Positions 32,546 to 33,859 of a stretch of 64,000 nt of DNA are shown one piece after another; within the stretch, counting starts at the first letter, position 1; each line of letters starts with the position of its first letter. Below the pieces are notes generated by a model that was given only the letters and a program-made list of their open reading frames with translations, was not told the DNA's origin and searched no databases. The DNA is taken from sequence record MT533174.1; one strand, 5' to 3'. A program made the position numbers and the translations under genes. This DNA comes from Escherichia phage CJ20.

Positions 32546-32621
32546 GGCCCTGTAGCTCAATTGGTTAGAGCATCCGGCTCATAACTGGCAGGTTTCCGGT
32601 TCAAGTCCGGATGGGGCCACC
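32546..32621 (+). tRNA. tRNA with anticodon CAU (Met, or Ile if the C34 is lysidine-modified as in the T4 tRNA-Ile)
   Basis: Hand-folded cloverleaf: acceptor GGCCCTG/TGGGGCC, D stem GCTC/GAGC, anticodon loop CTCATAA, T arm TCCGG-TTCAAGT-CCGGA, discriminator A plus CC; one mismatch in the anticodon stem. Confidence 0.75.
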
Positions 32622-32698
32622 CGGGGTGTAGCTTAATTGTATAGAGCAACGGTCTTCTAAACCGTAGGTTGTGGGTTAGAATCCCGCCACCCCGACCA
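32622..32698 (+). tRNA. tRNA-Arg (anticodon UCU)
   Basis: Hand-folded cloverleaf with all stems pairing: acceptor CGGGGTG/CACCCCG, D stem GCTT/GAGC, anticodon stem ACGGT/ACCGT with loop CTTCTAA, T arm GTGGG-TTAGAAT-CCCGC, discriminator A and encoded CCA. Confidence 0.82.
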
Positions 32699-32713
32699 AT
32701 TACTGAGGATATT

Positions 32714-32953
32714 ATGGTTATTAGTGAATCATATGCAGTTATGGATATAACCAGCAACGAGCTGGTTTATAGCTTTGATGAGTTTGATGAAAATGATAAA
32801 CAAGTCCCATGGTTTGCATTAACTGCTCCACCTGAGCATAATAAATATCTAAGTTTCCCGACACGTAGATTAGCAGCAAATTTTATGGAATTCAATGACC
32901 TTGATTCCAATTATAAGGTTGTTAAAGTCAAATTAGCTATTACAATTGAATGA
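32714..32953 (+). CDS. hypothetical protein, 79 aa
   Basis: ATG at 32714 after GAGGA (MVISESYAVMDITSNELVYSFDEFDENDK...); the ORF-track extension from 32669 overlaps the tRNA and is rejected. Confidence 0.5.
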   Translation: MVISESYAVMDITSNELVYSFDEFDENDKQVPWFALTAPPEHNKYLSFPTRRLAANFMEFNDLDSNYKVVKVKLAITIE

Positions 32954-33243
32954 GAAACCGGGTCGCTACCGGTAAGTCGTCGGACTGATGTTCCCTGCGT
33001 AAGGACTGGTCTTAATAAATCTTTACGATTTGTTAATATCCCCTTACATCACAGCAGAAACGGCGCACAGAATTATCGATTCGAGGAAATATCTTTGCCG
33101 TAAGCCGAGTAGCGTTTTTGACGGAACGTTCGGATATGGTCGAGATATGGCCTTTTAAAAATATTGAGTAGCGTCAACTGCTTAATAACCGGGTTCGAAT
33201 CCCGGCGTTTCGTACAAACACTTGCCTTGCAGGTGGAACCCCG
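32954..33243 (+). ncRNA. candidate structured stable RNA(s) downstream of the tRNA pair (possible counterpart of T4 RNA species 1/2); contains a tRNA-like T-arm
   Basis: About 290 nt with no convincing ORF, GC-richer than its surroundings, several hairpins (ACCGG-gtcgcta-CCGGT at about 32949-32965), a perfect tRNA-type T arm CCGGGTTCGAATCCCGG at 33179-33195 and a terminator immediately downstream; T4 encodes small stable RNAs next to its tRNA cluster. Confidence 0.3.
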
Positions 33244-33271
33244 ACAAGGTATAGCCCCTTCCGAAAGGTTG
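33244..33271 (+). terminator. rho-independent terminator
   Basis: GCCCC...GGGGC hairpin followed by TTTTTT at 33266-33271. Confidence 0.65.
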
Positions 33272-33304
33272 GGGCTTTTTTATAAATCAACTAAAGAGAA
33301 ACGT

Positions 33305-33859
33305 ATGAAACTGTTAAAATATTTGAGTTGGATTCTGTTAGTTCCGCTGGATTTTATCTCCATGATTCTGGCCGTTATCCTGGCTCCATTTGTAGTTCCG
33401 TTCCATAATAAAAAGACTGGTAAACTTCCGTTTGGGTTTGATTGGATGATGACTTATGATAATCCGATTGATGGTGACCGGGGTCATGTCAAACGTTGGT
33501 CAAAAATCCGAAAATGGCCATTAGGTGTTTACTTCCAACGAGTAGCCTGGCTCTGGCGAAACAAAGCATACAATTTTGCTTACCACAAGCTCGGCCGTGA
33601 TTGCAATTCAGAATTCCATTATAAAGGTAATCCTGATGTCGAATCTGGTTCCCCGGATAAAGCTCATCACGGTTGGCTCTTTATGTGGACGGACAATGCC
33701 TGGGGTGTTTTTGCTTCTGTTCCTTATCTTAAGGTCGGTGGAATCACCTTTTATCTGCGTGTTTATTGTGGCTGGAAGCTCAAGAGTCTTCTGTCCCGAC
33801 CTATCCCTAAGGCTATGCTCGCCTTCCATATAAATCCGTTCCGCTTTTATAAGAACTAA
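33305..33859 (+). CDS. hypothetical membrane-anchored protein, 184 aa
   Basis: ATG at 33305 (MKLLKYLSWILLVPLDFISMILAVILAPFVVPF...) with an N-terminal transmembrane helix; bracketed by terminators; the ORF-track extension from 33164 runs through the upstream terminator and is rejected. Confidence 0.65.
   Translation: MKLLKYLSWILLVPLDFISMILAVILAPFVVPFHNKKTGKLPFGFDWMMTYDNPIDGDRGHVKRWSKIRKWPLGVYFQRVAWLWRNKAYNFAYHKLGRDCNSEFHYKGNPDVESGSPDKAHHGWLFMWTDNAWGVFASVPYLKVGGITFYLRVYCGWKLKSLLSRPIPKAMLAFHINPFRFYKN

Follow-up and report, generated by a model that had tools for sequence, protein, structure and literature searches.

The non-coding stretch beside the two tRNA genes of Escherichia phage CJ20 aligns with T4 rnaD and rnaC and is predicted to form conserved structured RNAs

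The two tRNA genes of Escherichia phage CJ20 (sequence record MT533174.1) are followed, after one small ORF, by a stretch of DNA in which no convincing protein-coding gene can be recognized, and the question raised by this locus is what that stretch specifies. We analyzed a window of 64,000 nucleotides from this genome; the phage is of the RB69/T4 type (Tevenvirinae). The locus forms a tRNA and stable-RNA transcription unit in which a tRNA with a CAU anticodon and a tRNA-Arg with a UCU anticodon are followed by the small ORF, rnaD, rnaC and, after a conserved hairpin, a terminator. All of the genes and RNA elements described below lie on the + strand unless stated otherwise.

ARAGORN reports a total of two tRNAs in the 64-kb window (CAT at 32546–32621 and TCT at 32622–32698), and the same two genes are its only gathering-level Rfam matches (tRNA family; 62.2 and 69.8 bits, respectively). 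Both methods therefore agree with the count of two made in an earlier, sequence-only reading of this DNA. The genes are separated by a spacer of 0 nt, with the tRNA-Arg beginning at the base next to the end of the tRNA(CAU). The tRNA-Arg, which reads AGA, has an encoded CCA, while the 3′ end of the tRNA(CAU) has the CC of that sequence and no more.

The base pairs C4-G69 and C5-G68, together with a CAU anticodon, are the TilS determinants of lysidine-dependent tRNA-Ile2. Direct reading of the tRNA(CAU) sequence gives an acceptor stem (GGCCCUG/UGGGGCC) in which both of these pairs are present and an anticodon loop CUCAUAA, and the T4 tRNA-Ile aligns with it, the likeness lying in the acceptor and D arm. 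The gene probably encodes a tRNA of the tRNA-Ile2 type, which would read AUA provided that C34 is modified to lysidine. The long ORFs of the window use AUA and AGA at 9.4 and 6.7 per thousand codons, respectively; given these frequencies, the two base pairs and the likeness to T4 tRNA-Ile, the earlier suggestion that both tRNAs read rare codons is a reasonable one.

Between the tRNA-Arg and rnaD lies a 79-aa ORF (32714–32953; ATG at 32714, stop codon at 32951–32953) that matches phrog_33509 (E = 2.5e-56) and is the positional counterpart of RB69ORF150c. Alignment places its stop codon within the conserved AAUGAGAAAC lead-in of rnaD. From 32954 to approximately 33300 every ORF starts with TTG: one of 42 aa on the + strand, two of 34 and 38 aa on the − strand, and a fourth that extends the following gene upstream. 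The earlier description of the stretch after the small ORF as lacking a credible ORF holds, over ∼330 nt. An elevated GC content had also been described for the stretch; the elevation is there but is modest (0.40–0.455, compared with 0.31–0.40 in the flanks).

A blastn search with positions 32940–33290 matched 804 phage records, 679 of which cover at least 80% of the query, and in several of these records annotations of rnaC or rnaD lie under the match. Alignment of the stretch with Aplg8, T4 and RB69 gave a mean column identity of 92%. Coordinates were transferred from the annotated genes of Aplg8 (both RNAs) and T4 strain 147 (rnaC), which positions rnaD at 32949–33069 (Aplg8 mapping; CM R2 match at 32948–33072, 121 bits) and rnaC, the tRNA-like four-way junction discussed below, at 33076–33214 (T4 strain 147 and Aplg8 mapping; CM R1 match at 33076–33218, 162 bits). 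In T4, Aplg8 and RB69, too, the tRNA operon ends with rnaD, rnaC and a terminator in this order. The rnaC sequence differs from that of T4 at 2 of 143 positions, and copies at least 99% identical to that of the window are present in 490 of 750 phage records.

We conclude from these alignments that the non-coding stretch is orthologous to T4 rnaD (species 2 RNA) and rnaC (species 1 RNA). The sequence-only reading had offered a stable RNA like T4 RNA species 1/2 as one possibility; by alignment to annotated records the stretch contains outright orthologues of both, as adjacent genes. The finding is thus a rediscovery, since T-even phages were recognized decades ago to make the species 1 and 2 RNAs. 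RNAC has been seen by Northern blot in T4-infected cells, and both RNAC and RNAD were classed in T4 as late RNAs with function unknown (PMC9697503). In the literature that our search covered, statements about the function of either RNA say only that it is not known. Considered jointly, and with function excluded, the identity, fold and biogenesis that we describe here for rnaD and rnaC are in our judgment very probably correct.

The whole stretch folds better than shuffled sequences (z = −5.1; 0 of 100 shuffles as good), as does rnaC by itself (MFE −50.2 kcal/mol, z = −4.55; 0 of 200 shuffles as good). RNAalifold, applied to rnaC from seven genera, indicated compensatory changes at 19 of 46 pairs. 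In an alignment of 23 distinct rnaC sequences, 94.7% of cells are paired and 33 of 53 pairs have changed on both sides, counts that are inflated by the fitting of the alignment to a nested structure; none of 500 shuffles reaches the observed values, and slid controls pair at 37–46%. In the resulting model, rnaC forms a four-way junction in which the half of a tRNA made up of acceptor stem and T arm is retained, and a long arm and a 10-bp hairpin stand where the D and anticodon arms would be. The sequence-only reading had found no cloverleaf that could be folded around the T arm; a four-way junction does form there, in which two arms are unlike those of a tRNA.

The 5′ strand of the acceptor stem (CGAUUCG, 33077–33083) pairs with CGUUUCG at 33206–33212 to form a 7-bp stem with a tandem U.U at its fourth and fifth positions. 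These mismatches are replaced by U-A and C-G in Tegunavirus sequences; at pair 3:70, A-U is found in 9 sequences and G-C in 14. The discriminator position is U33213, and CCA is not encoded (UACAAA comes next). The long arm (33084–33153), which stands in the place of the D arm, comprises ∼26 bp with internal loops and ends in an apical loop, UUGACG (33118–33123). Its helices 3 and 4 show compensatory changes in 20 of 22 pairs (a count subject to the same inflation), and in Gelderlandvirus, one Karamvirus and Marfavirus the length of the arm is kept with a different sequence. An invariant, A-rich single-stranded linker, UUUUAAAAAU (33154–33161), connects this arm to the 10-bp hairpin in the place of the anticodon arm (33162–33187), which has a CGUCAA loop (33172–33177).

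The T arm, CCGGG-TTCGAAT-CCCGG (33189–33205), has a 5-bp stem and a canonical T loop (UUCGAAU) and is the perfect tRNA-type T arm recognized in the earlier reading. The third pair of its stem covaries (G-C, U-A and A-U), and the motif GGTTCRANTCC is observed twice in the window, in the tRNA(CAU) and in the rnaC T arm, against an expectation of 0.26. Because the T loop is non-canonical in the rnaC of Kanagawavirus and Winklervirus, the notion that a canonical tRNA elbow is a requirement is weakened.

The loops of the two replacement arms are complementary to one another over 6 nt and could form a ‘kissing’ interaction between CGUCAA and UUGACG. This loop-loop helix (helix 5), which is exempt from the inflation described above because it lies outside the alignment model, is 100% paired in the 23 distinct sequences. 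Two independent compensatory variants occur, CAUCAA/UUGAUG in Tegunavirus and CGCCAA/UUGGCG in Marfavirus, so that the covariation is based on two lineages and about six sequences; it would fit an intramolecular contact or a dimerization alike. An intramolecular contact needs the 26-bp arm to be bent sharply in order to meet the loop of the 10-bp arm.

The second RNA, rnaD, consists of a 5′ hairpin (32959–32973) followed by a long irregular hairpin that carries a variable apical hairpin; its conserved helices are P1 (GUCGUCG/CGGCG.AC) and P2 (UGUU/AGCA). Its folding relative to shuffled sequences is weaker (z = −2.0; 8 of 200 as good). Among 24 distinct sequences, 95% of cells are paired and both-sided changes are found in 14 of 22 pairs, numbers that again are raised by alignment to a nested structure. 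On the strength of these sequence comparisons we regard rnaD as a separate RNA with a covariation-supported fold. We rejected the idea that it arose by duplication of rnaC or is left over from a tRNA: the rnaC model has no match in it, and there is no tRNA-clan match in 32949–33069. A kink-turn in its internal loop, judged by eye, was also dropped because the sequence of that loop varies between genera.

Neither ARAGORN (in default, tmRNA and mitochondrial modes) nor Rfam (run at the gathering score and at E values up to 10) returned anything credible as a third tRNA or a tmRNA in the stretch; a standard third tRNA there had been named beforehand as the result that would speak against the sequence-only reading. 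For rnaC, Rfam RF00005 gave no match, and the best match within the clan was to tRNA-Sec (16.6 bits, E = 2.9). In its intron mode ARAGORN can be forced to a tRNA-Leu(taa) with a 5-nt intron at 33121–33215. We rejected this call because only T4 reproduces it (Pet-CM3-4 is called differently, and seven homologues give none) and because the alternative acceptor pairing that it involves creates A.C mismatches in most genera. An alternative acceptor, in which the 3′ strand of rnaC pairs with GAAACG at the end of rnaD (33059–33064), was likewise rejected as a conserved feature, because the rnaC stem uses its own 5′ end in genera without a preceding rnaD. We conclude that rnaD and rnaC are conserved structured RNAs and not decayed tRNAs.

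Downstream of rnaC is a trailer hairpin (33223–33251) that is nearly invariant in T4, RB69 and Dhakavirus; an 11-nt mini-hairpin that comes after it in T4 and RB69 is missing from the window. The intrinsic terminator previously proposed for this position is visible in both sequence and fold at 33254–33281 and is annotated as such in Aplg8. It consists of a hairpin, GCCCCUUCC-GAAA-GGUUGGGGC (33254–33275), and a U6 tract (33276–33281), and was missed by a simple scan because its stem has two U.U mismatches.

Comparison across phages revealed that rnaC lies between tRNAs in Moon, Pet-CM3-4, Melville, KaAlpha, EcS1 and CW742, and that the spacers between rnaC and tRNAs in several genera measure 5–13 nt. 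Its neighbors vary: it is found after a Met, Trp or Phe tRNA, and without nearby tRNAs in Tegunavirus. A position directly after a tRNA is also occupied by rnaD in T4, W70, Moon, Entb_45, Pet-CM3-4, EcWhh-1 and PWKp18. This is not so in RB69 or in the window, where the 79-aa ORF intervenes, and we treated direct adjacency as a feature of context and not as defining homology. Dhakavirus EcWhh-1 precisely lacks rnaC, and pEC-M719-6WT.2 has an ORF cassette in its stead; the tRNAs are unchanged in phages without rnaC. Unrelated rV5-like phages, which belong to another phage subfamily, also possess rnaD, and a SNP in the rnaD region arose convergently when a T4-like phage was evolved on a host that is semi-permissive (PMC12685909). 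A blastn search of 5,426 complete E. coli genomes gave no match, the GTDB genome collection yielded 18 pattern matches (all by chance and none with a CM match), and a pattern scan of metagenomes identified one contig, which is Marfavirus-like.

Because in several genera rnaC sits flush between tRNAs, and because rnaD begins close behind a tRNA, the two RNAs are most likely cut from a tRNA precursor by the tRNA-processing enzymes of the host. Judging from position, the 5′ end of rnaC would be generated by RNase P, which fits with its acceptor/T minihelix, the U at position −1 and its placement in a tRNA slot, and its CCA-less 3′ end would arise by trimming, possibly with CCA addition. The 5′ end of rnaD in the window would not come simply from tRNA 3′ processing, as in T4, because the 79-aa ORF lies in between.

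With respect to function, we tentatively propose that rnaC might act in trans by mimicking the ‘top half’ of a tRNA. The factor occupied or recruited by it would be one that recognizes the acceptor/T-arm minihelix, its locked body being unable to decode. It would behave as an accessory, host-dependent cassette and not as a core gene, in keeping with its absence from EcWhh-1, its replacement in pEC-M719-6WT.2 and the convergent SNP in the rnaD region. A more elaborate version, which we consider doubtful, is that rnaC is a purpose-built acceptor/T-arm mimic, either locked by the 6-bp loop-loop helix or dimerizing through it, that serves as a mobile counter-defense or host-takeover cassette, with rnaD as an independent second module. 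The target of such a mimic would be a host factor that recognizes the acceptor ends of tRNAs, for instance a tRNA-processing enzyme or toxins by which tRNA 3′ ends are modified or cut, and rnaD would belong to the same tRNA-array toolkit. If true, this would provide a function for two RNAs that have gone without one for decades.

Several other explanations were weighed against this proposal. That small proteins are encoded here (such as the 42-aa ORF at 33030–33158) might be suggested by the TTG-started ORFs on both strands and by the ‘hypothetical proteins’ annotated at this location in several GenBank records. Substitutions, however, follow the paired RNA helices and not codons, the starts are non-ATG with no ribosome-binding site seen ahead of them, and the variable hairpin of rnaD is swapped wholesale between close relatives. 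We give this explanation practically no credence and regard the ‘hypothetical proteins’ as a mis-annotation of the region in many GenBank records. A decaying tRNA pseudogene, or a functionless remnant of the larger T4 tRNA cluster, is highly improbable: it would agree with the loss of most of the T4 tRNA set in RB69-type phages, with a perfect T arm in the absence of a recognizable tRNA and with the tRNA-Leu that the ARAGORN intron mode can impose on 33121–33215, but rnaC is near-identical across hundreds of phages, every helix shows compensatory changes across about ten genera, the arm length is kept despite replaced sequence, and 7 of 10 homologues fail to give the forced tRNA call. The ‘degenerate tRNA’ raised in the sequence-only reading is contradicted by the 490 of 750 near-identical records and by helices that keep pairing through compensatory changes.

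The remaining explanations accept the RNAs and differ in what they would do. A purely cis-acting role, with rnaD and rnaC as structured spacers that guide or protect the processing of the tRNA precursor and its 3′ ends and with no role in trans, strikes us as rather unlikely. Both RNAs are found only inside or beside tRNA arrays, rnaD always a few nucleotides after a tRNA (the window and RB69 apart) and rnaC flush between tRNAs in several genera, and a conserved trailer hairpin and terminator lie downstream, all of which would suit such a role. Against it, rnaC accumulates in T4 as a discrete RNA (PMC9697503), its loops and AAAAAU linker are conserved beyond the needs of a spacer, it follows differing tRNAs (Met, Trp, Phe) or, in Tegunavirus, has none nearby, and phages without it have the same tRNAs. 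It is less probable still that rnaC, rnaD or both are regulatory sRNAs that base-pair with phage or host mRNAs, possibly via Hfq or ProQ; they are stable, abundant small RNAs that accumulate late, and the invariant A-rich linker of rnaC is single-stranded, but the best-conserved loops pair mutually and are not free seeds. Finally, the sequence-only reading had pointed to host anticodon nucleases, for which (PrrC, RloC, PARIS and those of the retron PtuAB type) rnaC could be a decoy substrate, being tRNA-like, phage-encoded, located beside tRNAs and gained and lost like accessory counter-defense genes. No arm of rnaC has a 5-bp stem and a 7-nt anticodon-like loop, however; the arm in the anticodon place has 10 bp and a conserved 6-nt CGUCAA loop that is complementary to the other conserved loop of the same RNA, and neither Rfam tRNA nor ARAGORN recognizes rnaC. 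The suggested link is not supported, and we consider a decoy very unlikely.

For solving the function of both RNAs, the value of the comparison lies in what it adds to RNAs already known: covariation-supported folds for two RNAs that are both without an Rfam family; a defined loop-loop contact, within rnaC, that is open to compensatory mutants; the placement of rnaC in the tRNA slots of several genera, together with natural variants in which it is absent or replaced; and the occurrence of rnaD in a phage subfamily to which these phages are unrelated.

A canonical tRNA and rnaC have in common a four-way junction, a 7-bp acceptor stem stacked on a 5-bp T stem with a UUCGAAU loop, and a single base at the discriminator position; in arrays, moreover, rnaC takes the place of a tRNA. 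Unlike such a tRNA, rnaC lacks a D arm, a 7-nt anticodon loop, a variable region and an encoded CCA, has a tandem U.U in its acceptor stem and a length of 139 nt, and is unrecognized by tRNA models. In tmRNA, a longer RNA that undergoes tRNA-like processing, the 5′ and 3′ ends come together as an acceptor stem and T arm, and those of rnaC are likewise formed by the ends of the RNA. In contrast to tmRNA, rnaC lacks a tag reading frame and a series of H-type pseudoknots, and in place of the alanine identity pair G3.U70 it has A3-U70 or G3-C70; the ARAGORN tmRNA search was negative, and Rfam produced no tmRNA match even at E values up to 10. The Y RNA-like YrlA RNAs of bacteria and phages and the eukaryotic mascRNA are non-decoding, tRNA-shaped RNAs that enter tRNA processing. 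YrlA carries its tRNA-like module internally and has a Ro-binding stem made by its ends, and mascRNA is a small cloverleaf. Rfam matches to these families in the region are weak, below gathering and on the genuine tRNAs, with none on rnaC or rnaD, and the principle is the same, that of a non-decoding RNA with a borrowed tRNA shape.

In relation to the T4 locus, the operon of the window has two tRNAs where that of T4 has eight, and an additional ORF lies upstream of its rnaD. T4 rnaD (∼119 nt) begins right after the CCA of tRNA-Arg, whereas in the window the 79-aa ORF stands between the two, and the variable apical hairpin of the window's rnaD is that of RB69 and unlike that of T4. The 5′ hairpin, the P1/P2 core and the position immediately upstream of rnaC are all alike. 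T4 rnaC (∼139–140 nt) differs in nothing essential: its sequence is that of the window's copy apart from the 2 of 143 positions, and it has the same neighbors, length and fold.

A blastn search with positions 32940–33290 against 50,697 phage records matched 804 of them, nearly all from T-even type phages of Escherichia, Shigella, Yersinia and their relatives, and in the carefully annotated records the features lying beneath the match are 'rnaD' and 'rnaC'. The record of phage Aplg8 labels them 'rnaD, small stable RNA; species 2 RNA' and 'rnaC, small stable RNA; species 1 RNA' and predicts a terminator after them; rnaC is also annotated in T4 strain 147. Among classical phages the closest relative is RB69, which shares both tRNAs and carries RB69ORF150c in the position of the 79-residue ORF described below, with the RNAs unannotated. 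A four-way alignment (mean column identity 92%) places rnaD at 32949–33069 and rnaC at 33076–33214, and the Aplg8 terminator maps to about 33254–33285, in keeping with the terminator proposed in a sequence-only reading of the region. Because the annotated rnaD and rnaC of relatives map onto the window, the 'roughly 300-nt structured region' of that account amounts to these two known genes, and its suggestion of an RNA like T4 species 1/2 is borne out.

On every feature open to testing, the element belongs to the T4 rnaC and rnaD families. The finding is a correct rediscovery: the RNA pair was already known (the sequencing papers of the 1970s and 80s are reportedly those of Paddock and Abelson; Mazzara, Plunkett and McClain; and Broida and Abelson). 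Two stable RNAs without known function come from the T4 tRNA region (PMC3014915); RNAC has been confirmed by Northern blot, and RNAC and RNAD are both classed as late RNAs (PMC9697503). The function of rnaC and rnaD was still termed unknown in 2025 (PMC12685909). No Rfam family for either RNA was matched, and a search of 5,426 complete E. coli genomes gave no match; pattern matches were found in the GTDB genome set, none of which was confirmed. Many phage GenBank records (blastn matches H1–H36 and H261–H290) show 'hypothetical protein' coding sequences across rnaC and rnaD or leave the region blank, while those of RB32 and PG7 list tRNA-Arg and tRNA-Met beneath the match.

Upstream, ARAGORN called a tRNA gene with anticodon CAT (32546–32621) and a tRNA-Arg gene with anticodon TCT and a fully encoded CCA (32622–32698), and no others over the whole 64-kb window. 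These two (62.2 and 69.8 bits with the Rfam tRNA model) were also the only features of the 64 kb to reach gathering score in the Rfam scan, in agreement with the earlier count of two tRNAs, CAU and UCU. The spacer between them is 0 nt (32619–32623): the CAU tRNA ends in A-C-C, directly followed by C1 of tRNA-Arg, which leaves the last A of the CCA unencoded. That A would need adding once RNase P has cut the 5' end of tRNA-Arg. The acceptor stem and D arm of the CAU tRNA are common to T4 tRNA-Ile, and the stem contains C4-G69 and C5-G68. As these pairs are the acceptor-stem marks of lysidine-dependent tRNA-Ile2, the proposal that the two tRNAs read the rare codons AUA and AGA stands as a likely one for AUA. 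The two codons are used at 9.4 (AUA) and 6.7 (AGA) per thousand in window ORFs of at least 150 amino acids, or two to three times as often as in E. coli.

The tRNA genes are followed by an ORF of 79 codons with no assigned function (32714–32953; phrog_33509), whose stop codon falls within the conserved AAUGAGAAAC lead-in of rnaD. Between 32954 and the ATG of the next gene at 33305 we found short, TTG-started ORFs only, which upholds the claim of about 290 nt free of credible ORFs. The folding energy of 32949–33290 is far better than that of shuffled sequences (z = −5.1), as expected of the structured, hairpin-rich region that had been described, and the perfect tRNA-type T arm, CCGGG-UUCGAAU-CCCGG, lies at 33189–33205; two copies of the motif GGTTCRANTCC are present in the window versus 0.26 expected. 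The GC content, reported as elevated, is indeed raised, but only mildly. The tRNA calls, ORF check, motif count and folding score together confirm the observation over 32546–33290 as a whole.

Several further features were seen in the flanks. A sigma-70-like match (TTGTTA, 16 nt, TACAAT; 32919–32946) lies inside the 79-residue ORF and ends 2 nt before the mapped rnaD start; such matches are no more frequent in the region than chance would give. An 11-nt mini-hairpin, UGCCGCAAGGC, located between the trailer hairpin and the terminator in T4, RB69 and most relatives, is missing from the window at 33250/33251, and phage pEC-M719-6WT.2 has the same deletion. The sequence TATAAATC (33281–33288), one base off the T4 late-promoter consensus, lies 3' of the terminator and about 17 nt ahead of the ATG at 33305. 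The gene that begins there (33305–33859) encodes a 184-residue protein with a hydrophobic N-terminus and no assigned function (phrog_2143); a long TTG-started upstream extension of it, from 33164, overlaps rnaC and was judged not credible.

The RNA encoded by rnaC is a conserved, tRNA-shaped molecule. A 151-nt query segment matched 750 records, of which 490 were at least 99% identical to the window copy, and divergence was greater in the adjoining rnaD and flanks. Distant copies (about 68–87% identity) occur in Kanagawavirus, Moonvirus, Karamvirus, Tegunavirus, Gelderlandvirus, Kagamiyamavirus, Winklervirus and Marfavirus, and a covariance model built from seven genera found full-length copies in all of them at 90–168 bits. 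The minimum-energy fold of the window copy and the RNAalifold consensus concur. Numbering U33076 as 1, an acceptor stem of seven pairs (2–8 with 131–137, with U.U at the fourth and fifth) is followed by a long arm (9–78), a single-stranded linker containing an invariant AAAAAU (79–86), a hairpin of 10 bp with a 6-nt loop (87–112) and, after one unpaired base, the T arm (114–130), which adjoins the acceptor 3' strand. U138 occupies the discriminator position, and since the trailer reads ACAAA, CCA is unencoded.

Across 23 distinct rnaC sequences, standard pairs fill 94.7% of cells and both-sided changes occur at 33 of 53 pairs, in an alignment that was fitted to the nested structure and hence is biased towards it. 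Neither measure was reached by any of 500 shuffles, sliding the 3' partners by 1–3 columns lowered pairing to 37–46%, and compensatory changes are also evident in an unfitted MAFFT alignment. At the third acceptor pair T4-type sequences have A-U and the others G-C, Tegunavirus has U-A and C-G in place of the two U.U, and the third T-stem pair varies among G-C, U-A and A-U. In four Kanagawavirus copies (loci L004, L016, L046 and L051) and one from Winklervirus (L050) the T loop is non-canonical, with UGCAUGC or UGCAUUC in place of UUCGAAU; the remainder of rnaC is conserved in them (T-loop columns of the rnaC alignment, A6).

The long arm carries the apical loop UUGACG (33118–33123), exactly complementary to CGUCAA (33172–33177), the loop of the 10-bp hairpin. 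This helix, which was left out of the covariance model, is fully paired in 23 of 23 sequences and has changed in a compensatory manner at two different positions in two lineages (CAUCAA/UUGAUG in Tegunavirus; CGCCAA/UUGGCG in Marfavirus-like phages). In Gelderlandvirus, one Karamvirus and Marfavirus the sequence of the long arm differs and its length and UUGRCG loop are kept. Given complementarity that is complete in 23 sequences and compensated in two lineages, the loops are predicted to pair with each other. The contact could be a kissing-loop tertiary interaction within one molecule, for which the long arm must bend back, or could form between molecules.

In Moon, Pet-CM3-4, KaAlpha, Melville, EcS1 and CW742, rnaC lies within the tRNA array, with 5–10 nt separating it from the preceding tRNA (Met, Trp or Phe) and 7–13 nt from the following one (Gly or Trp); its position and spacing there are those of a tRNA gene. 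The base before C1 is U in most copies. From this placement, the preceding U and the acceptor/T minihelix, we naturally infer that RNase P and the enzymes acting on tRNA 3' ends would process rnaC. rnaC nevertheless behaves as a removable cassette and is dispensable in nature, since it is absent from one phage and replaced in another. It is precisely missing from Dhakavirus EcWhh-1 (locus L009, around 1620), where rnaD runs directly into the trailer hairpin; in pEC-M719-6WT.2 (L055, 829–1332), which is closely related to the window, a cassette with a 127-residue ORF of unassigned function, preceded by two short hairpins, sits exactly in the rnaC slot, with rnaD and the trailer intact on either side.

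The conserved core of rnaD comprises a 5' hairpin, AA, P1 (GUCGUCG / CGGCG.AC), P2 (UGUU / AGCA) and the motif UCCCUG; the apical hairpin that it flanks is exchanged wholesale among close relatives. RNAalifold gave compensatory changes at 13 of 22 pairs (12 sequences), and 24 distinct sequences aligned by a second model gave 95% of cells paired and both-sided changes at 14 of 22. Moon, Entb_45, Pet-CM3-4, KaAlpha and Marfavirus have homologues within their tRNA arrays and, the RB69 type apart, all genera examined have a tRNA ending a few nucleotides before the start of rnaD; in the window the 79-residue ORF stands between tRNA-Arg and rnaD. The unrelated, rV5-like phage W70 (Vequintavirinae; L054, 1490–1595) has a homologue 5 nt 3' of a CAU tRNA, with no rnaC after it. 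Its core is near-identical to that of T4 and its variable hairpin resembles the Karamvirus version, a combination that suggests horizontal transfer or mosaic exchange of the module. In EcWhh-1, a short rnaD-like element (hairpin, AA, GCCGUCG ... CCGGCGCAAC; about 1431–1495) lies between tRNA-Arg and full-length rnaD; seen by eye and not reported by the rnaD model, it may represent a reduced copy in tandem. Between rnaD and tRNA-Met in Moon (L005, about 1217–1428) and Entb_45 (L004, about 1270–1424) lies a third conserved non-coding block, about 160–210 nt long, which shows long-range complementarity (CCAGAGAG ... CUCUCUGG), lacks an Rfam family and may be another structured RNA of T4-like tRNA arrays.

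The whole unit would be transcribed as one precursor ending at the terminator (here 33254–33281), from which tRNA-processing enzymes would free the tRNAs, rnaD and rnaC. With neither a D arm nor an anticodon loop, rnaC would be incapable of decoding. Its acceptor end has C1-G72 with U73, without G3.U70 or G-1, and to our knowledge fits none of the acceptor-stem identity sets, and so rnaC is probably uncharged. The function we favour, though with low confidence, is that rnaC acts in trans by mimicking the top half of a tRNA, engaging a factor that recognises acceptor/T-arm helices. The pattern of gain and loss is consistent with a host-dependent role, as is a SNP that arose convergently in the rnaD region when a T4-like phage adapted to a semi-permissive host (PMC12685909).

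Competing with the top-half mimic are a cis-acting processing element, a base-pairing sRNA and a stretch encoding small proteins. The idea of a tRNA-like decoy, linked to anticodon nucleases, is disfavoured because rnaC has no anticodon-like loop, and covariation of the helices excludes a pseudogene, and with it the degenerate tRNA that the sequence-only reading had entertained.

The comparison also yielded useful by-products: a comparative structure for the RNAs, the predicted loop-loop contact and naturally occurring deletion variants. As non-decoding RNAs in the tRNA processing pathway, the tRNA-like domain of tmRNA, YrlA and mascRNA are alike in principle to the rnaC/rnaD element, which is itself a member of none of these groups.
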